Positions 26,664 through 38,802 of a stretch of 39,650 bases of DNA are shown one piece after another. The DNA is from Escherichia phage pO91, in sequence record OR204650.1. One strand, given 5' to 3'. How positions within the stretch are numbered: position 1 is the first letter of the stretch; every line of letters starts with the position of its first letter. The position numbers were made by a program, and so were the translations under genes. The notes under the pieces were generated by a model that did not search any database, was not told the DNA's origin, and saw only the letters and a program-made list of their open reading frames with translations.

Positions 26664-28946
26664 ATGGCTAGTAATATTGAATCAGCTCTGGCTAATCGGA
26701 CTATGGGTCGTGGCAGAGCGCCGGGTAAAACTATCGCCGTCAACTATCAAGCAGCAAACGTTCAGGCTCCCACTGGGGACTCCGGGCTGGCTCGTGCATT
26801 AACTAACTTCGTTGAGTCTGGGACAGGATTGTACAAGCAGTTCAAGGACGATGAGAAGACAAGAGCCGACGAGCGGTCTAACGAGATTATCCGTAAGCTG
26901 ACACCTCAGCAAAGACGTGAGGCTATCCAGAACGGCACATTGCTGTATCAGGATGACCCTTACGCTATGGAAGCACTTCGAGTCAAGACTGGTCGTAACG
27001 CTGCCTTTGCGGTGGATGACGAGATTAACGTTAAGATTCAGAACGGTGAGTTCCGTACACGTCAGGACATGGAAGAGTATCGCCACCAGCGACTTCAAGA
27101 CGCAGCTAAGTCCTATGCTGAAGAGGCGGGTATTAACCCTACCGACGAGTTCTTCCAGCGTGGATTCAACGATAACATCACGGACCGAAACATCGCTATC
27201 TACGGGTCATTCAATAAGTATTTCAGCAAGCAGTCTGAAGAGACAGCAATGTTGAACACTCGTATTGAGATGAACTCGTTCCTTAACGATGGGGACCTGA
27301 TGCGTTCGCCTGAGTCTGGAAAGACCTTCATGGCCTACCTTCGGGATGGACTGACGACTGCTGCTATACCTTCGGACCAGAGAGCACGAGAGGTCATCAC
27401 CCAGACGGTCCGTGACGCAATCCAGAAGTCAGGAGGCTCAAACTTCCTACAGCAAGTCCGTGGCGAGCGTATCACCCTTAATGGTGTTGACGCTACCATC
27501 GAAGAGATTGTAGGACCTGACGTCTTCAATGCTGCTATGGTTGAGGCCCAAGGTACTGAGTATAAACTGGTGGCTAAGTATCAGGAAGACTTGGCGTTAG
27601 GCGTTCAGTCTGCGATTCTTCAGGATGACCCAACCATCGGTCTGGCCCAGATTCAAAAACTCAAGGAGCAGAACAACCAGCTTCAACCCGGCGAAGAACT
27701 CACTCCTCAGCGACAGATGCTTATTAACGCCGAAGCCACACTACTGGAAGCGGTAAAGCGTAAGTCTGCTGAACAGGCGAAGGAGAACACGAAGTTAATC
27801 CAGACACAGAACAAGCAACTGGTCATTGACCAAGTTTATCAGCGACGTCTTGCTGGGGACAACGTGTCCACCAACTATGAGGACCTTCCGGTCTCTGAAG
27901 CCACAGGAGAGTTCAAGCGTTCAGACATGAACAACTATGCGTCTGCCAAGCTACAGCAGATTGACCAGATGGACATCCCTGAGGCTGCTAAGGACGCTCA
28001 GAAGGTGGCATTGTTAAGAGCTGACACTAACAACGGTCCGTTCCGTAATGCCTTCCAGACGCTTACTCAGGACGCTGCTGGTGAGTGGCAAGCTGCGGTC
28101 ATCCGTGGACAGTACGACCCAAACAAGATGCAACGCTTCGAGTCTCTTCGTCGTTCCTACACTCAGGACCCTTCAAGTTTCGCTGCTCTGTATCCTGACC
28201 AAGCTCAGTTGTTCTCTACGTTCGACCAGATGGACAAGATGGGTCTGGACCCTCAGACGATGATTGAAGCTGATAAGCAAGCTGCAAGTCAAAGCCGTGA
28301 GATGCGCATGGAGTCAGACAAGGCGTGGCAGGAGTTGAAGAACGACTCCAAGAACACCCAGTTGTCTCGCCTCCCAACGTCTCTGGACTCAAGTGCTCGT
28401 AAGGTCTGGGACTCATGGTACTATCGTACAGGTAACGCTGACGCTGCAACGCAGCAGACTCAACGCTGGCTGAATGAGAACACCGTAACGTTCCAGTCTG
28501 AAGGTTCTGACGGTAAGTCCATCGGCATGGTGTCCAAGCACCAGCTTATGGTCGGGGATAACCCAGAGTCGTGGCAGGTTGGTCGAGACATTATCGACAC
28601 CGCTCGTAAGCAGCTCATTAAGGCCAACCCTTGGGTAGTGAACTCTCAGTTGTCCGTTGTTGAACAGAACGGCTCTATCTTCCTCCAAGACGCTACAGGG
28701 ACTATTCGTATTCGCTACGATAAAGAACTTGTAGGTAAACTCTACCGCGAACAACAGCAGAAGGCACAAGATGCCGCATACGCTCAGGCAGAACGTGACG
28801 CTAACAAGCGAGCGCGTATCGTCGAGACTAAAGCTGCTGGTGACAAACGTCGAGCTGACCGAGAGGCCAACATCGAGAAGCGCGGTGGGATGTACAATGA
28901 CGTCTCACTGGAGGGTATCGCAAACACCTTAATTGGTAAGGAGTAA
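26664..28946 (+). CDS. Internal virion protein (T7 gene 15 homolog)
   Basis: 760 aa versus about 747 in T7; AGGAGGA RBS; called on size, synteny and general similarity. Confidence 0.85.
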   Translation: MASNIESALANRTMGRGRAPGKTIAVNYQAANVQAPTGDSGLARALTNFVESGTGLYKQFKDDEKTRADERSNEIIRKLTPQQRREAIQNGTLLYQDDPYAMEALRVKTGRNAAFAVDDEINVKIQNGEFRTRQDMEEYRHQRLQDAAKSYAEEAGINPTDEFFQRGFNDNITDRNIAIYGSFNKYFSKQSEETAMLNTRIEMNSFLNDGDLMRSPESGKTFMAYLRDGLTTAAIPSDQRAREVITQTVRDAIQKSGGSNFLQQVRGERITLNGVDATIEEIVGPDVFNAAMVEAQGTEYKLVAKYQEDLALGVQSAILQDDPTIGLAQIQKLKEQNNQLQPGEELTPQRQMLINAEATLLEAVKRKSAEQAKENTKLIQTQNKQLVIDQVYQRRLAGDNVSTNYEDLPVSEATGEFKRSDMNNYASAKLQQIDQMDIPEAAKDAQKVALLRADTNNGPFRNAFQTLTQDAAGEWQAAVIRGQYDPNKMQRFESLRRSYTQDPSSFAALYPDQAQLFSTFDQMDKMGLDPQTMIEADKQAASQSREMRMESDKAWQELKNDSKNTQLSRLPTSLDSSARKVWDSWYYRTGNADAATQQTQRWLNENTVTFQSEGSDGKSIGMVSKHQLMVGDNPESWQVGRDIIDTARKQLIKANPWVVNSQLSVVEQNGSIFLQDATGTIRIRYDKELVGKLYREQQQKAQDAAYAQAERDANKRARIVETKAAGDKRRADREANIEKRGGMYNDVSLEGIANTLIGKE

Positions 28947-28950
28947 CATA

Positions 28951-31900
28951 ATGGCGACTCGTGGTATTCGCAATAATAATCTGGGTAACCTCCGGGTAAG
29001 TAAGGACCAATGGGAAGGTGCTGTGGGCGATGATGGTGCATTCGTTATCTTCGATAGTCCTGAATCAGGAGTAAGAGCATTAGCGAAAAACCTTCAAAGC
29101 TACGGTCGCCAAGGTTATGACTCCATCGAGAAGATTATCAACCGATGGGCACCTCCTAACGAGAACGACACTCAGTCTTATATTAACTCAGTGGTGGCTG
29201 CGACTGGTATTCCAGCTACCCAGAGTCTCGACCTATCGGACCCTGACACCCTGTCTTCTCTGGCTCAAGCTATCGGCTTCCATGAGACAGGCTCCCGGTA
29301 CGACCCTGAAGTCTATCAGAAGGGAGTCGCACGAGCACTCAATGGCATTAGCCCAAAGACTCCACCAGTAAGCGCTAACGTATTTGACGCACTCACGGAA
29401 GGACTCAAGGCTAAACCTAACGTAGCTCTGGGTGAGAACCTTCCGACCGCTGCTGGTCTGAACATTGAGGGTCAAACACCTGAAGCTCCCAACGAATCGT
29501 TCGGCGAGATGTTCTATAAGGCTACTGGAGAGACCATGCAGGAACGAGAGGACCGCTCTACGTGGTTCGGTTTCGGTGCGGCTACAGAAGCTGAAGTGAA
29601 GAACTCTATGGGCGGCGTGGCTATCCGCGCTGGTCAGACCGAGGACTCACTTGATGTCATTGGCGATGTGTTTAACCCGACCCGCTGGAATAACCATAAG
29701 TGGACTCGTGAGGAGCTTGACCAGATTCGCAACGCTGGGGTTCTTCCTCAGTATTACGGGGTCATTACTGGAGGCTCTCCTCAGAACCTGACCGAGCTTA
29801 TTAACTTGGCGCTTGAGAACCAGAAGTTGGACCAAGAGAAGGCCAAGGCTGGGACTGGTGCTCAGCTAGCCGCTGGTGTTATTGGTGCTGGCGTGGACCC
29901 TCTGACATACGTTCCTATTGCTGGACAGGTGTGGAAAGGAGGTAAACTGGTCAACAAGATGTTCACCGTGGCAGCTCAATCTGGAGCACTGGCTGGTGTG
30001 TCTGAGAGGGCCCGTACCTCAGTGGCTGGTGGTGATGCTCATGTGGCTGAAGCTATCCTTGGTGGTGCTCTCTTCGGTGGTGGTATGACGGCTATCGCTG
30101 ACGGACTAGGCAGAGCCTTAGGTCGTAACACTAACGAGTTCGCTGGCCCAGCTACACGTCTGGAAGCCCGTGAGACTGCACGTAATGTTGATGGTCAGGA
30201 CCTGTCGCGTATGCCAATCCGTGAAGGAGAGGAGACCTTTAGTCACCAAGGCGTTAAGTTCGCTGACGTGCCGAATGAGCCGGGAAGTGTACGATTAGAA
30301 GACGGTTCAATCCTGATTGGTGAGAACCCTCTGAATCCTAAGACACGTCAAGTCTTTGACGAAGTGATTGAGCCGGAACGTGCCGCTGCTGGCGTGAACC
30401 TTGGTGGACTTACCGAGATTGGGCTGAAGCTGCTTCGGTCTGAGAACCCTGAGATTCGTGGAGTAGCTGCTGACTTAGTGCGTTCACCGACTGGTATGCA
30501 GTCTGGGGCCTCAGGTAAAATCGGGACCACTGCATCTGACGTATTCGAGAGACTTCGTGCTGTAGATCATCGGTTCTACAACGACATCGACGATGCTGTT
30601 ACTGAGGCGCTCAAGGACCCATACTTCCAGACAGCATTCTGGCGAGACTCTGGCGCATTCCGTCAAGACGTCTATCAGCGTGTGTCTATGGCTATCGAAG
30701 ATGGTAGTGGGAACCTGAAGGCTGAACTAACTCCGGGAGAGCTGAAAGTATATGACCTGCTGAAGAACCAGTTTGACGCCAAGCGTGAGATGATGGAGAA
30801 CCCGTCTATGTTTGGTCGTCCAGACGCTAAGTCTATCTTTCCGGGTAGCCGCTTCAAGGGAACCTACGTCCCGCATGTGTATAGCAACCAGATGAAGGAG
30901 CTGTACATCAAGGAGCTTGGGAGTCCAGAGGCGTTGCAGGAGGCAATCAAGAAGTCATGGCTTACCAGCTATGCGTCTCGACCTGAAGTAAAGAAACGTG
31001 TGGACGAGGCACTATTAGAGGCTGACCCTACGTTGACTCCAGAAGGACTTGCGGCTGCGGTCGATAAGTACGCCAACGATAAGGCTTACGGTATCTCTCA
31101 CACGGAGCAGTTCGAGCGTTCATCCGTAATGGAAGAGAACATCAACGGTCTGGTAGGTCTGGAGAACAACAGCTTCCTTGAGGCGCGCAACCTGTTCGAT
31201 AGCGATATGTCAATCGTCCTGCCTAACGGTCAGACCTTCAGTGTCAATAACCTACGTGAGTGGGACATGGACAAGATTGTCCCGGCCTACAACCGTCGAG
31301 TTAACGGCGACATTGCTATCATGGCTGGTACAGGAAAGACCACGAAGGACATGAAGGACTTGGTTGAGACCCTGATGAACAAAGCCGGTGATGACGGAAA
31401 GTTGAAAGGTGAGGTATCTACCTTACGTGACACCTTGAAGATTCTCACTGGTCGTGCTCGACGTGATGGTGCTGATGATGCAGCCTTCAATACCGTTCTG
31501 CGCACAATGACAGACCTATCGTTCTTCGCTAAGAATGCCTACATGGGTGTTCAGAACTTAACGGAGATTGGTGGTATGCTGGCTCGCGGTAACGTTCGTG
31601 CAATGCTTCATGGAGTCCCGATGTTCCGTGACCTAGCCTTCCGTAACAAGAAGGTCGGAGCCTCAGAGATTAAGGACCTTCACAATGTTCTCTTCGGTAA
31701 GGAACTGGACGACTCAATCCGTCCGTCTAAACAGGATGTCATTGACCGTCTGCGCTCCTACAGCGACCTCGGTCGTGGTACGGCTACAGCTCTGGGGACT
31801 GCCAAGTATTACACCGGTGAACTTGCAGTACGCTCTCCTTTAACTAAAGTCCTCAACGGTACGACAAACTACCTGTTAGATGCTGGACGTCAAGGCTTCC

Positions 31901-32838
31901 TGTCTGACATCGTGGAGCATAGTCTGACTGGCAGTAAGCGTAAGTTCGATGACCGCTGGCTGAAGACCGCTGGTATCTCTGACGAGCAGTGGAAGGGTAT
32001 TAAGTCCCTAATCCGTGAGTCAGTGACTCGTGGTCCAGACGGGAAGTATACCATCAAGGATAAGAAGGCGTTCAGTCAGGACCCAAGGGCTATGGACCTG
32101 TGGCGTATGGGTGACACCATCGCTGACGAGACATTGCTTCGTCCACACAAGCTGAGTAACATGGACGCCAAGGCTTATGGCCCTCTGGCTAAGACTGTCC
32201 TTCAGTTTAAGAACTTCGTCATCAAGTCCATCAATGGGCGTACCATGCGAACCTTCTATAACGCCACGAAGAACAACCGAGCGATGGATGCTGCTCTGTC
32301 CACTGTGATGTCTATGGGTCTTGCTGGTATCTACTACATGGCTCAGGCACACATCAAGGCTTACGCTATGCAGGATGGTCGTGACCGTGACTACCTCAAG
32401 CAAGCTCTGGACCCGACGATGATCGGATATGCGGCTCTGTCCCGTAGTTCACATCTCGGTGGACCACTTGGTGTAGCTAACATTCTGGGTGGTATCGCTG
32501 GGTACGAGGACACTAAGATGCTCCGTTCATCTATCCTACCTCGTTCACCTACAGAGAAGCCTGAACGTGCCATCGCGTATGGTGCAGCTACAAGTGACCC
32601 TGTGATGAATATTGTTGGTAACTTCTTGGAGCAGGTTCCAGCTTTCGGATATGCTGCTAACGTTGGCGCTTCGGCTTACAACTTGGCTGGCTACCTAAAG
32701 GCCGATACTCGTGTCAACGAGCGTGACTACATGACCGGGATGTATAATACGTTCCGTGAACTGGTTCCGAACGACCCCATTACCCAGAAGCTGTTACTTG
32801 GAACGTTTGAGGAGCAAGGCATCCACATCAAGGACTAA
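28951..32838 (+). CDS. Internal virion protein (T7 gene 16 homolog) with a non-T7 N-terminal module
   Basis: From about residue 185 collinear with recalled T7 gp16 (STWFGF, PTRWN, VAGGDA, RLEARETARN, DLVRSPTGMQSGASGK, GTYVPHVY, ILTGRARR, LDPTMI); first ~180 aa lack SLT motifs; ATG 28951 after AAGGAG. Confidence 0.92.
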   Translation: MATRGIRNNNLGNLRVSKDQWEGAVGDDGAFVIFDSPESGVRALAKNLQSYGRQGYDSIEKIINRWAPPNENDTQSYINSVVAATGIPATQSLDLSDPDTLSSLAQAIGFHETGSRYDPEVYQKGVARALNGISPKTPPVSANVFDALTEGLKAKPNVALGENLPTAAGLNIEGQTPEAPNESFGEMFYKATGETMQEREDRSTWFGFGAATEAEVKNSMGGVAIRAGQTEDSLDVIGDVFNPTRWNNHKWTREELDQIRNAGVLPQYYGVITGGSPQNLTELINLALENQKLDQEKAKAGTGAQLAAGVIGAGVDPLTYVPIAGQVWKGGKLVNKMFTVAAQSGALAGVSERARTSVAGGDAHVAEAILGGALFGGGMTAIADGLGRALGRNTNEFAGPATRLEARETARNVDGQDLSRMPIREGEETFSHQGVKFADVPNEPGSVRLEDGSILIGENPLNPKTRQVFDEVIEPERAAAGVNLGGLTEIGLKLLRSENPEIRGVAADLVRSPTGMQSGASGKIGTTASDVFERLRAVDHRFYNDIDDAVTEALKDPYFQTAFWRDSGAFRQDVYQRVSMAIEDGSGNLKAELTPGELKVYDLLKNQFDAKREMMENPSMFGRPDAKSIFPGSRFKGTYVPHVYSNQMKELYIKELGSPEALQEAIKKSWLTSYASRPEVKKRVDEALLEADPTLTPEGLAAAVDKYANDKAYGISHTEQFERSSVMEENINGLVGLENNSFLEARNLFDSDMSIVLPNGQTFSVNNLREWDMDKIVPAYNRRVNGDIAIMAGTGKTTKDMKDLVETLMNKAGDDGKLKGEVSTLRDTLKILTGRARRDGADDAAFNTVLRTMTDLSFFAKNAYMGVQNLTEIGGMLARGNVRAMLHGVPMFRDLAFRNKKVGASEIKDLHNVLFGKELDDSIRPSKQDVIDRLRSYSDLGRGTATALGTAKYYTGELAVRSPLTKVLNGTTNYLLDAGRQGFLSDIVEHSLTGSKRKFDDRWLKTAGISDEQWKGIKSLIRESVTRGPDGKYTIKDKKAFSQDPRAMDLWRMGDTIADETLLRPHKLSNMDAKAYGPLAKTVLQFKNFVIKSINGRTMRTFYNATKNNRAMDAALSTVMSMGLAGIYYMAQAHIKAYAMQDGRDRDYLKQALDPTMIGYAALSRSSHLGGPLGVANILGGIAGYEDTKMLRSSILPRSPTEKPERAIAYGAATSDPVMNIVGNFLEQVPAFGYAANVGASAYNLAGYLKADTRVNERDYMTGMYNTFRELVPNDPITQKLLLGTFEEQGIHIKD

Positions 32839-32856
32839 ACTATCACTATAGGAAAC
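32834..32856 (+). promoter_or_regulatory. Phage RNAP promoter (phi17-like)
   Basis: ACTAAACTATCACTATAGGAAAC; followed by leader hairpin AAACGGGAG...CTCCGTTT. Confidence 0.8.
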
Positions 32857-32902
32857 GGGAGGCGCTACCATAGGTCTCCGTTTAAATCACAAAGGAGGCA
32901 TA

Positions 32903-35023
32903 ATGTCCACGATTACACAATTCCCTTCAGGAAACACTCAGTACAGGATTGAGTTCGACTACCTAGCCAGAACGTTTGTTGTTGTTACGCTGGTGAATAG
33001 CTCTAACCCTACCCTGAACCGTGTACTGGAAGTTGGTCGAGATTACCGATTCCTTAATCCAACGATGATTGAGATGTTGGTTGACCAATCAGGTTTCGAC
33101 ATCGTTCGTATTCACCGTCAGACTGGAACTGACTTAGTGGTAGACTTCAGGAATGGCTCAGTGTTGACAGCTAGTGACCTGACCAATGCAGAGCTTCAGG
33201 CTATCCATATTGCAGAAGAAGGTCGAGACCAAACTGTTGACTTAGCGAAGGAATATGCCGATGCTGCTGGTAGCTCTGCTGGCAACGCTAAGGATAGCGA
33301 GGACGAAGCACGACGAATCGCTGCTACTATCAAGGCAGCTAGTCTAGTTGGTTATATTACCCGTCGCTCCTTCGAGAAAGGCTTCAACGTTACAACATGG
33401 AACGAGGCCCTGCTATGGGAAGAGGATGGTGATTATTACCGCTGGGATGGTACGCTTCCAAAGAACGTTCCTGCTGGTTCAACTCCTGAAACGTCTGGTG
33501 GCATTGGGTTAGGCGCGTGGGTTAGTGTCGGCGATGCTACATTGCGCAATCAAATATCTGACCCTGACGGTGCCACTAAGTACCCAGCGTTACAAATTGC
33601 GCGTTGGCGTGATGAAGGAGATGTGCGCGGTTGGGGTGCTGGTGAAGAAGGTTTTAACGCCGCGATGTCTGCTATTAGCTCATCAGGAGGTGGGACGTTA
33701 TTTGTAAACGAGGATATTCTTTTCACTTCGTTACCTATTAACCACCTACCAAAAGTTACAGTCCACTGGAACGCTAAGGCAATTGTGCAGACCGGACTTA
33801 CATCGACTTACGCCTACATCATGGACGGTGGCGCCGATACTCCATCTTATGATAATACCGACCACTTTACGCTAGCTAACAAAACTAACTGTTACGGCTT
33901 GCGTTTAGAGGCGCAGGATTACACTGTCGGGATCAATGCCATTGGTGTATGTGTTAGGCATTGCTACGGGTGGACTTACGAAGGGGGAGCCATTATCGGA
34001 TTTAATAATGGAGGTTTCTACGAGACTAACAACTACGAAGGAAAAGCCAGCAAGTTCACTCTAGTTGTAGCCAATACAAGACTTGATAACTCCGTGGGGT
34101 TTGAAAGTAATTCAACTGACAGTTGGTTTAGTGAAATTTCGCCAGTAGGTTATTCAATCGGTGGAAAGTTTAATAAGAGTGGTAACTCTCTAGATAAATT
34201 TCATCCATGGGGAAACACTGTTGATAATCGCGTAGGCGTGATGGGGAAGATGAATGTTGGTATCGTAATTACAGAGAATGGAGGTTTTTCTACATATTCA
34301 AATATTATTCTTGATACTCCAGTAAGGAAAAACACCAATAATGTCCCATCTAGAAGTAATGGTGGGGTTGGTGTAATTTGTGATGCATGGGACTGCGTTC
34401 TTGATGGGATTCTTGTATTACCGTCCAAACATGACACAGTAGCAAAAAGTACCTTACCAATGATCACCACTACGCAAAGATCAACAATAAAAGATTTTCA
34501 GGTTTCGGGTGAGCAGTATGTAACAGACATATGGATTTCATTTGAAAACAATTCAGGGATAGCCAGGAATCACGTTTCAGGTTATGGGTATGCTGAAAAA
34601 ATGCGTACAGGAATGACCTTTGGGCCTAATTCTGGAGCTGCCCTTGCAAGTGCTGGGGGTGTAACGATGTCGAGCCAAACTCTGACCTCTGGAATATGGA
34701 ACAACACATTAAGTTTTTCCATAGCTACAACAGTAACAGCTATACCGTCAGCAACAGGTGATGTAATTGTTAATATATCTCCTGTTTATGGCATTAAATC
34801 TGGATTCGGAGGTACTGTTAAGGGTGGTATGTTTGCATTCTTCTATGCTACCGCTAACTCCTCCAAACAATTGTACGATGTGTCCATAGAAGTTACAGCA
34901 GACAACACAGCTAAGTTTCTGCTAACGTTTATCGACGGCACGACACGGTACGCACGATGGACAGATGTATCTAACGGTTCATCAAGAAGCATAAGCATAT
35001 CAGGAGTCCTTAATATAAAATAA
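32903..35023 (+). CDS. Tail fibre / tailspike protein (T7 gene 17 homolog N-terminus, divergent C-terminal receptor-binding module)
   Basis: N-terminal ~150 aa (FDYLARTFVVVTL, DYRF, DFRNGSVLTASDL, AEEGRD) match the recalled T7 gp17 adaptor domain; the remainder is unrelated to T7 and the last ~1 kb is visibly AT-rich. Confidence 0.9.
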   Translation: MSTITQFPSGNTQYRIEFDYLARTFVVVTLVNSSNPTLNRVLEVGRDYRFLNPTMIEMLVDQSGFDIVRIHRQTGTDLVVDFRNGSVLTASDLTNAELQAIHIAEEGRDQTVDLAKEYADAAGSSAGNAKDSEDEARRIAATIKAASLVGYITRRSFEKGFNVTTWNEALLWEEDGDYYRWDGTLPKNVPAGSTPETSGGIGLGAWVSVGDATLRNQISDPDGATKYPALQIARWRDEGDVRGWGAGEEGFNAAMSAISSSGGGTLFVNEDILFTSLPINHLPKVTVHWNAKAIVQTGLTSTYAYIMDGGADTPSYDNTDHFTLANKTNCYGLRLEAQDYTVGINAIGVCVRHCYGWTYEGGAIIGFNNGGFYETNNYEGKASKFTLVVANTRLDNSVGFESNSTDSWFSEISPVGYSIGGKFNKSGNSLDKFHPWGNTVDNRVGVMGKMNVGIVITENGGFSTYSNIILDTPVRKNTNNVPSRSNGGVGVICDAWDCVLDGILVLPSKHDTVAKSTLPMITTTQRSTIKDFQVSGEQYVTDIWISFENNSGIARNHVSGYGYAEKMRTGMTFGPNSGAALASAGGVTMSSQTLTSGIWNNTLSFSIATTVTAIPSATGDVIVNISPVYGIKSGFGGTVKGGMFAFFYATANSSKQLYDVSIEVTADNTAKFLLTFIDGTTRYARWTDVSNGSSRSISISGVLNIK

Positions 35024-35141
35024 ATAACCCCGCCGAACCGGGTAGAGGGTCGAAGGTTGTGGAGGTAGAGGCTAACTGCACGCTGACCAACGTATGTAAC
35101 AACTTTGGGTCACGGACGACCCGCTTTAAACTGGAGGTTTT

Positions 35142-35336
35142 ATGATTGAGTTAGACTTCAAGAATGAGGTCCTTAAAGCCTCTCCTATCGTCGGGACCGC
35201 TGCGGCTGATGGTGCCAGTCGGTTCTTCTTCGGACTTACACTGAACGAATGGTTCTACGTTGCAGTTATCGCGTACACCGTTGTCCAGATTGGTGTGCTA
35301 GTCTACAAAACGATTAAAGGAGGTGGTAAAACATGA
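35142..35336 (+). CDS. Holin (T7 gene 17.5 homolog)
   Basis: LDFKNEVLKASPIVGT..AD...RFFFGLTLNEWFYVAVIAYTVVQIG matches recalled T7 gp17.5. Confidence 0.92.
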   Translation: MIELDFKNEVLKASPIVGTAAADGASRFFFGLTLNEWFYVAVIAYTVVQIGVLVYKTIKGGGKT

Positions 35337-35596
35337 CGCAGATGGACTTAGAGAAGTTCCTCTTAATGCTAGATACTGAACGTGCTCGACTCATGTTGCA
35401 AGACTTACGTGACGACTCTAAGCGTTCACCTCAGCTTTACAACGCCATTGAGAAGCTACTGGCTCGTCACAACTTTGTGTTAAGCAAGGTGTCTGTGGAC
35501 GAGAAGACGCTGGCTGATATGGAGGCCCTGAACGCAGAGTACGATAAGGTGCTTTCAGCGACTGAGGATAATGACACCGGGTATGGTGTTCAATAA
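35333..35596 (+). CDS. Terminase small subunit (T7 gene 18 homolog)
   Basis: FLLMLDT, RSPQLYNAIEKLLARH match recalled T7 gp18. Confidence 0.88.
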   Translation: MTQMDLEKFLLMLDTERARLMLQDLRDDSKRSPQLYNAIEKLLARHNFVLSKVSVDEKTLADMEALNAEYDKVLSATEDNDTGYGVQ

Positions 35597-35599
35597 GTG

Positions 35600-35646
35600 T
35601 TAGACTCAAGGTCATTACTATATGTAGTGGCCTTTATGGTTAACAC
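35600..35646 (+). promoter_or_regulatory. Conserved hairpin element, copy 3 (putative RNase III site, R18.5-like position)
   Basis: TAGACTCAAGGTCA...TGGCCTTTATGGTTAAC; stem AAGGTCA/TGGCCTT at 35608-35614 and 35628-35634. Confidence 0.5.
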
Positions 35647-35697
35647 TAACTAGTGGAGGCGACTCTACGTGAAATCTGATAAACCGGGAGGGCATCT

Positions 35698-36135
35698 ATG
35701 CTCGAATTTTTAAAGAGAGCGGCTCCGTGGTTACTTGCAGCAGTGATGTTTGCTGGTGGCTACCACACCGCTAACAATAAGTGGGAGGCTAAGGTCAATG
35801 CAGAATACACCTCGAATCTTAAGGCATCGGAAGATACAAGGCTTGCTGTCCAAGCTGAAGTCAACAAAGTGTCCAGACGGTTTCAGGACGAAATGTCCTC
35901 GCTGGAAGGCAGCACTGATAGGATTATTGCTGACCTTCAGTCTGACAATAAGCGGTTGCGCGTCAAAGTCAACACCTCAGGTCTCACCGAGTCCGATATC
36001 AGTCGATGCTTCCCTAATGGTAGAGTCGAATTACACGAGTCAACTTCTAGAAGTCTTATCGAAATAACCCAGAAGGCAGACTTAAAGGAGAAGGCTTTAC
36101 AGGATACCATAAGGAGGTTGCAGGGTGCTAAGTGA
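35698..36135 (+). CDS. Rz-like i-spanin (T7 gene 18.5 homolog)
   Basis: MLEFLKRAAPWLLA, LEGSTDRIIADLQSDNKRLRVKV, LQDTIRRLQ match recalled T7 gp18.5. Confidence 0.92.
   Translation: MLEFLKRAAPWLLAAVMFAGGYHTANNKWEAKVNAEYTSNLKASEDTRLAVQAEVNKVSRRFQDEMSSLEGSTDRIIADLQSDNKRLRVKVNTSGLTESDISRCFPNGRVELHESTSRSLIEITQKADLKEKALQDTIRRLQGAK
35798..36067 (+). CDS. Rz1-like o-spanin lipoprotein embedded in the +1 frame of Rz (T7 gene 18.7 homolog)
   Basis: PRWKAALIGLLLTFSLTISGCAS lipobox and SVDASLMVE match recalled T7 Rz1; GGAGG 9 nt before ATG 35798; wholly inside the Rz gene. Confidence 0.85.
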   Translation: MQNTPRILRHRKIQGLLSKLKSTKCPDGFRTKCPRWKAALIGLLLTFSLTISGCASKSTPQVSPSPISVDASLMVESNYTSQLLEVLSK

Positions 36136-36511
36136 TTTAGTATATGAAGACGGGAAGCTGCTTAAAGGTGGGAAGGAGGTGGGTCACATCTCTAACCACG
36201 GCTACAGGCGCTTCAAGATAAACGGAAAGAACTATTTGGTCCACCGCTTGATTTACAAGATGCACAATCCTGAGTTCGACATTCTATCTGAACTGGTTGT
36301 GGACCACATCAACCGCAACCGTCTGGACAACATGATTGAGAACCTAAGGGCTGTGACCACGGCGGAGAATAACAGGAACCACGCTCCACCACTAGGTGTA
36401 TCATTCTGTAAACAGACTGGTAAATGGAAGGCGATTCATCCCCGGTGGCTTGGACGTTTTGATACAAAAGAGGAGGCCCTTAATGCAGTCAACGCCGCAA
36501 GACAGGAATAA
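36125..36511 (+). CDS. HNH_3-type homing endonuclease with AP2-like DNA-binding domain (paralog B1)
   Basis: [30 protein letters not shown] core followed by [28 protein letters not shown]; between Rz and large terminase; start uncertain (GTG 36125 or GTG 36178 after GGAAGGAGG). Confidence 0.8.
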
Positions 36512-38246
36512 TGAGCTGACCTCTCGGATGAAGGCGGACTTTGTGTTCTTTCTCTTTGTCCTGTGGAAAGCACTATCACTTCCCCCCCCGACTCGCTGTC
36601 AGATTGACATTGCTCGAAAGGTATCTAATGGGGGCAACCGCCGATTCATCCTTCAGGCTTTTCGAGGCGTGGGTAAGTCGTTCCTCCTATGTGCCTTCGT
36701 GGTCTGGAAGCTATGGAACAACCCAGACTTGAAGTTCATGATTGTGTCGGCCTCAAAGGAACGAGCCGATGCTAACTCCATATTCATCAAGCGAATCATC
36801 GACCTCATGCCTCAGCTTCAGGAACTAAAACCTAAGCAGGGGCAGCGAGATGCGGTTATCAGCTTCGACGTTGGGCCAGCCAAGCCAGACCACTCACCTT
36901 CGGTTAAGTCCGTTGGTATCACTGGTCAATTGACTGGTAGTCGTGCCGACATCCTGATTGCCGATGACGTGGAGGTTCCGAACAACTCAGCGACTCAGGC
37001 TGCACGAGACCGCCTGTCAGAGCTTGTGAAAGAGTTCGACGCTATCCTGAAGCCGGGAGGTACAATCATCTATCTGGGTACTCCTCAGAACGAGATGACC
37101 TTGTATCGTGAGCTGGAAGGCCGTGGGTACACCACTACTATCTGGCCAGCTCGTTATCCACGCGACAGGAAGGACTGGCAGTCTTACGGAGACCGTCTGG
37201 CTCCTATGCTTCAGGCAGAGCTGGAAGAGGACCCTGAGGCATTCTACTGGCGTCCAACCGATGAAATACGATTCGATGATACGGACCTTAAGGAACGTGA
37301 GTTGTCATATGGTAAAGCTGGCTTCGCTCTACAGTTCATGCTTAACCCGAACCTGAGTGATGCTGAGAAGTACCCTCTGAAGCTCCGTGACCTTATCGTA
37401 GCGGACTTGGACCCAGCGTCCAGTCCAATGGTCTACCAATGGTTGCCGAACCCTCAGAACAAGCGTGAGGACGTTCCTAACGTTGGACTCATGGGTGACT
37501 CATACCACACGTATCAGACTGTAGGTTCTGCCTTCAGTTCGTACACCCAGAAGATTCTGGTCATTGACCCTAGTGGTCGTGGTAAGGATGAAACTGGTTA
37601 TGCGGTACTATATCAGCTCAACGGCTACATCTTCGCTATGGAAGTTGGTGGTATGCGTGGTGGCTATGAAGACTCTACGCTGGAAGCCTTGGCTAAGATT
37701 GGTCGTAAGTGGAAGGTCAACGAATACGTCATTGAGGGTAACTTCGGTGATGGTATGTACCTTGAGCTATTCAAGCCTGTAGCGGCCCGTATCCATCCTT
37801 CGGCTGTAACTGAAGTGAAGAGTAAGGGTCAGAAAGAACTCCGCATCTGTGACGTTCTGGAGCCTATCATGGGGTCTCACAGACTTATCGTCAACGCTGC
37901 TGCTATCGTCCAAGACTACCAGACAGCCTCTGACAAGGATGGTGTGCGTAACCCTATCTACTCTCTCTTCTACCAGATGACACGTATCTCTCGTGAACGT
38001 GGAGCCTTGGCACACGATGACAGACTTGATGCTCTAGCTATCGGTGTACAGTTCTTCGTTGAGTCTATGGCTAAGGATGCCAACAAAGGCGAACGTGAAG
38101 TCACTGAGGAGTGGCTGGAGGAACAGATGGAGAACCCACGGAAAGGCTTCGAGTCCATCCACACTGAGTTCTGGGACAATGGTGTCCGGGTAACTCACGA
38201 TATGGACGACGAGCTGGGGCTAGGGTCCTACGTTACGTTTCATTAA
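36483..38246 (+). CDS. Terminase large subunit (T7 gene 19 homolog)
   Basis: 587 aa versus 586 in T7; [108 protein letters not shown]; ATG 36483 after AGGAGG. Confidence 0.97.
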
Positions 38247-38259
38247 ATAAGGAGGTATT

Positions 38260-38802
38260 ATGGCGAAGGTGAAGGACATCGACAGGGTGTCCCTCTTCGA
38301 CCACTATGCGTATGTTGATGGACAACTGGTGTGCAGGAAGCCTTTCGGCAGCTCGAAGAAGACCCCGGGCGAACCTATGGGCTTCTCTGTACACCCTTCC
38401 GGATACGCCATAGTGAAGGTGCTTGGAGGTAGGTATAGACGCTCTCGAATCATATACAGTCTAGCTGTAGGTCGAATACCTAAGGGTATGATGGTCGACC
38501 ACATCAATGGTGATAGGCTGGACGATAGACCTGAGAACTACAGGCTTGTTACTGCGCTTGAGAACCGCTGGAACTCAGAGGGTGGAGAGACTAATGGTCT
38601 CCCTAAGGGTATCAGCTTCTTCAAGCCAACAGGTAAATATCGTGCTCAGCTTCGGGTTCATGGTAAGTGTTTCACTAAGACTTCGGATTCCATAGAGGAA
38701 CTAGAGGCATGGCTGGCTGCTCTACGAACAGAGAAGCACAAGGAATACGCAGTAAACCGACGGTCCCCTACGCGAGATAGGACATACAGAAACCGTAAGT
38801 AG
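38260..38802 (+). CDS. HNH_3-type homing endonuclease with AP2-like domain (paralog B2)
   Basis: MVDHINGDRLDDRPENYRLVTALEN plus GISFFKPTGKYRAQLRVHGK; directly after the large terminase gene; AAGGAGG RBS. Confidence 0.85.
   Translation: MAKVKDIDRVSLFDHYAYVDGQLVCRKPFGSSKKTPGEPMGFSVHPSGYAIVKVLGGRYRRSRIIYSLAVGRIPKGMMVDHINGDRLDDRPENYRLVTALENRWNSEGGETNGLPKGISFFKPTGKYRAQLRVHGKCFTKTSDSIEELEAWLAALRTEKHKEYAVNRRSPTRDRTYRNRK

Follow-up and report, generated by a model that had tools for sequence, protein, structure and literature searches.

Kayfunaviruses carry one enzymatic tailspike, directed against the O-antigen or the capsule (PMC11990801). O-antigen targets are known for the tailspikes of Ro45lw (O45), Ro103C3Iw (O103), CLB_P1 (O104) and Bas105 (O16) (PMC10408124, PMC11990801, PMC12737597). 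A horizontally exchanged receptor-binding domain (RBD) on a conserved Kayfunavirus anchor has already been described for these four phages and for K1F, which targets the K1 capsule. Swapping of the tailspike module is the normal route of host change for such phages; it is textbook for Kayfunaviruses, and the case described here leaves the current understanding unchanged. Tailspike cassettes decide which strains a podophage infects, and it is these parts that are exchanged in engineering phages for use in therapy or detection.

Here we analyzed a stretch of 39,650 nucleotides from Escherichia phage pO91 (OR204650.1), from now on called the window, together with the claims of a first-pass annotation of the same DNA. 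We estimate a probability of about 75% that its single Kayfunavirus tailspike consists of a conserved anchor and a recombined, polysaccharide-cleaving beta-helix cassette, with the O-antigen as the likeliest target and O91 as the leading serogroup. The anchor (aa 1-246) comprises a T7-type adaptor, a Tail_spike_N domain and a neck, and attaches the spike, presumably a trimer, to the tail. The cassette (aa 247-706) would have been gained by homologous recombination, with the 5' crossover in a conserved stretch encoding ...ARWRDEGDVRGWGA and the 3' crossover within a small hairpin element right after the stop codon, and takes the place of the endosialidase found there in K1F. The cassette most likely serves to bind and cleave a polysaccharide of the host surface, giving the phage access to the outer membrane. 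Such binding and cleavage would make the cassette the host-range determinant; the first-pass annotation had proposed this role, and it follows from the published work on single-tailspike Kayfunaviruses (PMC11990801, PMC10408124). To what was known of such cassettes, the present analysis adds the precise junctions, a fold, a candidate active site, a list of carriers and a lead to O91.

Tailspike locus and conserved anchor

The backbone of the window was that of a K1F-like Kayfunavirus, its first 25 kb being 93-94% identical to many Kayfunavirus records over 90-94% of the length. From the list of open reading frames and the synteny with the K1F annotation, we recognized a gene 17-type tailspike ORF of 706 aa (32903..35023, + strand), located between gp16 (28933-32838) and the holin gene 17.5 (35142-35336). 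The flanks of the tailspike gene aligned with the K1F genes 16, 17.5, 18 and 18.5 at 94-97%. The exact tailspike protein had no record in the public gene-position collection. There were no Rfam matches, and promoter- and terminator-like sites showed no excess over the shuffle expectation. An antisense ORF of 89 aa (34201-34470) was within chance, the longest open stretch being 98 aa versus 84 ± 20 aa in shuffles.

The N-terminal part of the spike carried a T7-type tail adaptor domain (aa 1-148; 32903..33346, + strand). PF03906 matched aa 10-116 with an E-value of 5.6e-16 and a score of 59.1 bits, compared with a cut-off of 25.2. The first-pass annotation had likened only the N-terminus to T7 gp17, and this likeness was indeed confined to aa 6-116, where the PDB chains 7boz, 8dsp and 8e4g aligned. 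Beyond this region T7 gp17 (7boz, 553 aa) gave no alignment, and homology to the T7 fibre tip was absent.

A second anchor domain had been missed by that annotation, which had recognized the T7 adaptor. This was a Tail_spike_N domain of the CBA120 TSP1/gp66 type (PF18668; aa 149-211; 33347..33535, + strand), with an E-value of 1.3e-19 and 70.4 bits versus a cut-off of 25. Chains of the CBA120 spikes TSP1, TSP3 and TSP4 matched aa 145-229, and the Tail_spike_N segment had a DNA identity of 93% with K1F. The solved Kayfunavirus-type spike 9vvr_A (PDB) matched aa 1-279 (E 2e-152), with the identity collapsing past ...RWRDEGDVRGWGA. Tail_spike_N follows the adaptor within the conserved anchor, as its second part. 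The whole of aa 149-246 is of non-T7 type, yet it belongs to the conserved Kayfunavirus anchor rather than to the swapped segment.

Mosaic junctions

Homology to K1F spanned positions 31000-33640 and 35040-35977, with a K1F-type identity of 94%. It broke at 33640, corresponding to aa 246, and resumed 17 nt past the stop codon. The 1.4 kb between the junctions were 71-89% identical at the nucleotide level, and 70-93% at the amino acid level, to the tailspikes of unrelated phages and prophages. PH1061, in the same comparison of the junction region, was 91% identical throughout. The mosaic junctions thus show directly a horizontal acquisition of the module, as the first-pass annotation had suggested from composition. 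The span it had given, 33900-35023, was too narrow: by homology and composition the exchanged receptor-binding module covers aa 247-706 (33641..35020, + strand), with its boundary at aa 246/247 and not near aa 333. Likewise, the peptide it had quoted (GGGTLFVNED...) lies upstream of that span, at aa 262-292 (33686-33778).

At the 5' junction, anchor-type and donor-type homologies overlapped in a crossover zone encoding ...DPDGATKYPALQIARWRDEGDVRGWGA (33554..33640, + strand). Donor-type homology started at 33551 for Meifeng, at 33554 for the siphovirus L012, at 33569 for ECO340P1 and at 33617 for LPST94. Depending on the donor, roughly 25-90 nt were common to both parental types.

The 3' crossover zone (35024..35039, + strand), delimited by alignment and folding, comprised ATAACCCCGCCG and the first bases ahead of the K1F-type sequence. 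Homology to both K1F and PH1061 resumed at 35035-35040. The ATAACCCCGCCG found after the stop codon, an AACCCC hairpin relic (35024-35035), was the 5' half only of an element that follows the LPST94 copy as an intact hairpin. The LPST94 hairpin folded at -11.7 kcal/mol (z -2.0), and the window element had no significant fold (z +0.38). A hairpin half-kept in the window and intact in the Kuttervirus places the 3' crossover inside this element. With at least six anchor contexts, the 5' overlap at 33554-33640 and the hairpin relic at 35024-35035, the module belongs to the exchanged RBD cassettes.

Conserved motifs flanking the RBD have been proposed as cross-genus recombination hotspots (PMC10408124). 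The hairpin element at the 3' junction invites comparison with the "motif three" of that study.

Carriers and distribution of the module

The 5' part of the gene was found in 164 phage records, and PH1061 was the only one of them that also had the 3' part; the remaining 163, as well as K1F, were without the module. A tblastn search with the module gave matches in five of 50,697 phage records, namely PH1061, the Phapecoctavirus ECO340P1, LPST94, Meifeng and, distantly, an Aeromonas phage. In the Kuttervirus LPST94 the module was found on one of the four spikes. Three of the 5,426 complete E. coli genomes carried it, and a more sensitive blastn of the E. coli genomes gave no additional carriers. 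Single protein and profile scans of 185,579 species-representative genomes detected 0 loci. Four IMG/VR contigs had the module. A large protein collection contained 142 clusters with it, and 23 clusters at 50% identity were found among 1.84 billion representatives. The cassette family is small, and has neither a characterized member nor a domain model or a solved structure.

Different anchors carried the module. The combination of T7 adaptor and Tail_spike_N (PF03906 and PF18668) was found in the 706-aa spikes of Kayfunavirus, Tail_spike_N (PF18668) alone in spikes of 618-626 aa, and the P22 head-binding domain PF09008 in the 606-aa spikes of P22-like E. coli prophages. Five other anchors bore the module, at 70-93% amino acid identity, in a Kagunavirus-like siphovirus, a Phapecoctavirus, a Kuttervirus, the Hafnia phage Meifeng and the P22-like prophages. 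The closest copies were from a 44-kb siphovirus with a Kagunavirus-like gene content and PF18668 only (93% amino acid identity, and 89% nucleotide identity over 33554-35024). Further copies were found in Yersinia kristensenii, Buttiauxella and Hafnia paralvei. As hosts or residences of the carriers we recorded E. coli, Shigella, Salmonella, Hafnia, Yersinia and Buttiauxella. The cassette circulates in at least six phage lineages, including podo-, sipho- and myoviruses, both lytic and temperate.

The cassette was also internally mosaic. At aa 277-336 the window was 90-97% identical to LPST94 and 63-70% to PH1061. At aa 487-576 the pattern was reversed, the window being closer to PH1061 than to LPST94.

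O-antigen linkage and candidate serogroup

Genes modifying the O-antigen were found directly downstream of the spike in seven of the eight temperate carriers. In Meifeng, E. coli 30COLEC and one IMG/VR contig the spike was followed by gtrCBA, in another IMG/VR contig by GtrC, and in E. coli GPEC1292 and two IMG/VR contigs by an Acyl_transf_3 (Oac-type) gene. The only temperate carrier without such a gene after the spike was MB06231. P22, Sf6 and related serotype-converting phages modify the O-antigen used by their spike. Based on this precedent and on the adjacency of gtrABC or acyltransferase genes, we infer that the LPS O-antigen is most likely the substrate of the module. The first-pass annotation had given no specificity; the class of target can now be narrowed, with an O-antigen being likely and O91 the leading candidate.

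The position of a serotype-conversion gene beside the tailspike is partly fixed by the P22-like genome layout.

By annotation, the three completely sequenced E. coli lysogens had O-antigen clusters of the types O91, O91 and O21. Both O91 strains (wzx/wzy annotated) had intact P22-like prophages, with ejection proteins and Arc/Ant regions. In 30COLEC (O21), the spike, the gtr genes and an integrase adjoined another integrative element. This prophage was remnant-like, which weakens the association with O21 and does not remove it. With O91, O91 and O21 (n=3, one of them a remnant), the lysogens stayed below the serogroup consistency of ≥90% used in PMC10408124. The O21 and O91 copies were 90-92% identical, and no sequence signature set the former apart: 16 sites were consistent, compared with 43 that differed between the two O91 copies. 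We regard E. coli O91 as the leading candidate. With respect to LPST94, the only spike listed in Table S1 of PMC10408124 is the neighboring AXF41694 (subtype X25, no serogroup), the module-bearing AXF41693 being absent, and the phage does not appear in the paper on Ackermannviridae subtypes or in its supplement.

That O21 and O91 strains harbor near-identical copies would also be explained if the module were a depolymerase of the capsule (K-antigen) or of another exopolysaccharide, because the K type of a strain varies independently of its O type, and K1F offers a precedent. We consider a capsule target unlikely, given the O-antigen glucosylation and acetylation genes beside the spike in seven of eight temperate carriers. 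It is also at odds with the literature on two of the contexts in which the module occurs, as the head-binding tailspikes of the P22 type and the tailspikes of Kuttervirus are overwhelmingly O-antigen-specific (PMC10408124, PMC8432352).

Predicted fold and candidate active site

The structure model of the module was nearly all beta. A right-handed parallel beta-helix was predicted at ~aa 264-562 (33692..34588, + strand) with a pLDDT of 94; a cap helix (aa 247-260) lies ahead of it. By this model, the receptor-binding domain has a pectin-lyase fold. The fold matches were tailspike glycanases, over ~300 residues of beta-helix, and the closest phage matches were all enzymes. The earlier description of the region as beta-rich and depolymerase-like is thus in agreement with a confident model. 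A C-terminal beta-sandwich (~aa 579-706; 34637..35020, + strand), recognized from the secondary structure of the model, was outside the ~300-residue fold matches; it could serve for trimer stabilization or for extra glycan binding.

A conserved stripe of candidate active-site residues was found at 34034..34216 (+ strand), consisting of Y378, E379, R393, D406, Y417, H434, W436 and N438. Across 38 sequences with identities down to 28%, none of these residues varied apart from E379, which was present in 37 of the 38. The spacing of E379, D406 and H434 was 27-28 residues, about one helix rung, and in the model every stripe residue directly followed a beta-strand. Catalysis probably uses the E379/D406/H434 stripe.

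Family searches for aa 247-706, by Pfam (E≤1), NCBIfam, phmmer against the PDB and a 38-sequence profile against the PDB, gave matches to the anchor domains only, and the PHROGs matches were confined to the anchor as well. Pfam had no match beyond aa 211, and thus no K1F-type Peptidase_S74 chaperone domain was present. No close structural relative was found in BFVD.

A K1F-type endosialidase (GH58 and Peptidase_S74) was ruled out, since the homology stops at aa 246, Pfam is silent past aa 211 and the predicted fold is a beta-helix.

It is improbable that the beta-helix forms a binding-only spike, devoid of glycanase activity. The lack of matches to catalytic Pfam and NCBIfam families, and the lack of solved relatives above 15% identity, would be compatible with it. 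However, E379 (37 of 38), D406 and H434 are placed on consecutive rungs, conserved down to 28% identity and beside invariant Tyr, Arg and Trp; this arrangement is the pattern of catalytic grooves, and the enzymatic nature of all the closest phage fold matches points in the same direction.

Breadth of the target

The spread of the carriers over E. coli, Shigella, Salmonella, Hafnia, Yersinia and Buttiauxella is unusually broad for a single O-antigen.

Copies 70-93% identical across these genera, and copies 90-92% identical in O21 and O91 lysogens, would fit a glycan or epitope common across Enterobacterales or to several serogroups, for example the enterobacterial common antigen (ECA) or a common O-unit substructure. 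We find such a target very unlikely. A spike for a universal antigen should be common, and the module was rare (5/50,697 phage records, 3/5,426 E. coli genomes, 0/185,579 species representatives, 23 clusters). ECA is not mentioned in the BASEL paper. Furthermore, related O-antigens exist across genera, for example in E. coli O21 and S. enterica O38, as stated by a title cited in PMC7685785. There is a slim chance that the beta-helix family recognizes an epitope of several O-serogroups and Enterobacterales genera, or an ECA-like glycan. If so, the shared-epitope cassette would give cross-serogroup and cross-genus adsorption, and would explain both the near-identity of the O21 and O91 copies and the 70-90% identical relatives in Salmonella, Hafnia and Shigella phages.

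Under the preferred reading, a spike cleaving an O-antigen, the intact lysogens suggest O91 LPS as the target. If this is the case, the cassette would be a ready-made RBD for an important non-O157 STEC serogroup, and the mapped junctions give the exact points for grafting it.

Composition of the module

The first-pass annotation had described the last 1.1 kb of the gene as AT-rich. This was borne out by calculation, the G + C content of 33900-35023 being 41.1% (0.411), compared with 49.8% (0.498) in the whole window. The segment had the 11th lowest value among 38,527 same-size windows, the minimum of 0.408 starting at 33904, and its z-score was -4.1 relative to 33 non-overlapping windows. The full module (33641..35020) had a G + C content of 0.419 and a GC3 of 0.359, versus a GC3 of 0.547 ± 0.036 in 27 other + strand ORFs (lowest 0.481), resulting in a z-score of -5.2. 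This drop in GC3 shows that the shift in composition hits synonymous sites, beyond amino acid content. G + C at codon positions 1 and 2 was 0.449 versus ~0.50, and the GC3 of the anchor (0.435) was also low. Gly, Asn, Thr and Ser, for which the domain had been called rich, reached 40% in aa 247-706, 29% in the anchor (aa 1-246) and 27% in gp16.

In other carriers the module had a G + C content of ~0.40-0.42, with flanks of 0.43-0.51. It blended with its flanks only in the Phapecoctavirus (0.39), and the Kuttervirus copy, with 0.45, was partly ameliorated. The low G + C content belongs to the cassette pool and not to the window phage. A dip arising from amino acid composition or local selection, without foreign origin, would fit the Asn-, Ser-, Thr- and Gly-rich domain, the lower G + C at codon positions 1 and 2 and the low GC3 of the anchor, but is hardly tenable against the module GC3 of 0.359, the exchange of the segment among unrelated phages with its ~0.40-0.42 kept in carriers of 0.43-0.51, and the mapped junctions. 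Overall, the interpretation given by the first-pass annotation was supported.

Comparison with known systems

K1F gp17, the endo-N-acetylneuraminidase tailspike for the K1 capsule, shares with the window both the genus backbone and the locus. Its anchor had ~93% DNA identity with aa 1-246 of the window, ending at the boundary between anchor and catalytic domain. Past this boundary the two spikes differ: K1F gp17 is a 1064-aa sialidase with a C-terminal chaperone, whereas the window spike has 706 aa and an unrelated predicted beta-helix without Pfam match. The tail protein of the Kayfunavirus PH1061 (OQ680138) had the same architecture and length, with 89.3% nucleotide identity over the gene and 87% amino acid identity over the module. 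Unlike the window, PH1061 bears an extra ORF of 177 nt after the spike. The metagenomic 706-aa siblings P0009, P0017, P0019 and P0030 also had the same architecture and length, and the module of P0009 was 92% identical at the amino acid level.

The solved beta-helix O-antigen tailspikes CBA120 TSP2 (6w4q/5w6p), Det7 gp208 (6f7k), HK620 (2vji), Sf6 and P22 had 9-13% identity to the module, with TM-scores of 0.3-0.46. There is no kinship to them at the sequence level, and their catalytic residues are not transferable. The spikes of Ro45lw, Ro103C3Iw, CLB_P1 and Bas105 follow the same principle, in which an exchanged enzymatic beta-helix on a conserved anchor sets the serogroup. These phages were absent from the five phage records matching the module, indicating that the module is a different RBD subtype. 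By its description, Dep6, an O91-specific LPS depolymerase of the T7-like phage PHB19 (Chen et al. 2020, AEM; as cited in PMC10621286), is likewise a tailspike of a T7-like podophage, and acts on the LPS of O91, the serogroup of the two intact lysogens.

Composition and mosaic structure of the tailspike gene

The AT shift spans the entire gene 17, the swapped module as well as the anchor. GC3 of the conserved anchor (32903-33640) was 0.435, below that of all other phage ORFs (minimum 0.481), even though K1F-like phages share the anchor at ~93%.

The swapped module (33641-35020) was compared with its copies in the Kuttervirus LPST94, the Kayfunavirus PH1061 and the Phapecoctavirus ECO340P1. Over aa 277-336 it was 90-97% identical to the LPST94 copy, versus 63-70% to those of PH1061 and ECO340P1. 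The opposite pattern was found over aa 487-576, which were closer to PH1061 and ECO340P1 than to LPST94. The module is internally mosaic, implying that cassette variants have recombined with one another, besides the recombination at the cassette borders.

Downstream of the spike, the K1F-type sequence restarts at an identical point in the window and in PH1061 (AACCGGGTAGAGG). In PH1061 an additional annotated ORF of 177 nt (L004:6207-6383) separated the spike from the holin gene; this ORF was missing from the window (compared at 35024-35040).

A homing endonuclease gene, a possible second one, and genome relatives

A segment of ~540 nt (35978-36516), flanked by the Rz-like gene 18.5 and the gene for the terminase large subunit, was missing in both K1F and PH1061. 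It held a 128-aa HNH_3 homing endonuclease ORF (36125-36511, + strand; PF13392, E 5e-15) with a weak AP2-like tail. Gene 18.5 itself also differed from K1F at its 3' end (35978-36135). The next ORF after the terminase (38260-38802, + strand, 180 aa) may be a second homing endonuclease, because a sibling Kayfunavirus contig (L013) encoded a 180-aa HNH_3 protein at the equivalent position.

The best whole-genome matches had 93-94% identity across 90-94% of the first 25 kb of the window, suggesting that this Kayfunavirus falls short of the customary 95% species cut-off. The close backbones included that of the Hafnia paralvei phage yong1.

Spike-associated gtr genes in other genomes

In E. coli 30COLEC (L006, NZ_CP070930.1 1415896-1433064) we found a spike-gtrCBA-intS-tRNA-Arg block. 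Ahead of it were a second integrase, Icd-like, AntA/B and DUF6387 genes, and P22 structural genes were absent from that place. At the argW/yfdC site, the locus looks like a prophage remnant that borders on a separate, satellite-like integrative element.

The GtrA and GtrB adjoining the spike were 100% and 96.7% identical, respectively, between the Hafnia phage Meifeng (L005:7483-10200) and the 30COLEC remnant (L006:9248-12014), and the serotype-specific GtrC was only 25% identical between the two, so that the gtr cassette combines a conserved A/B part with a swapped C part.
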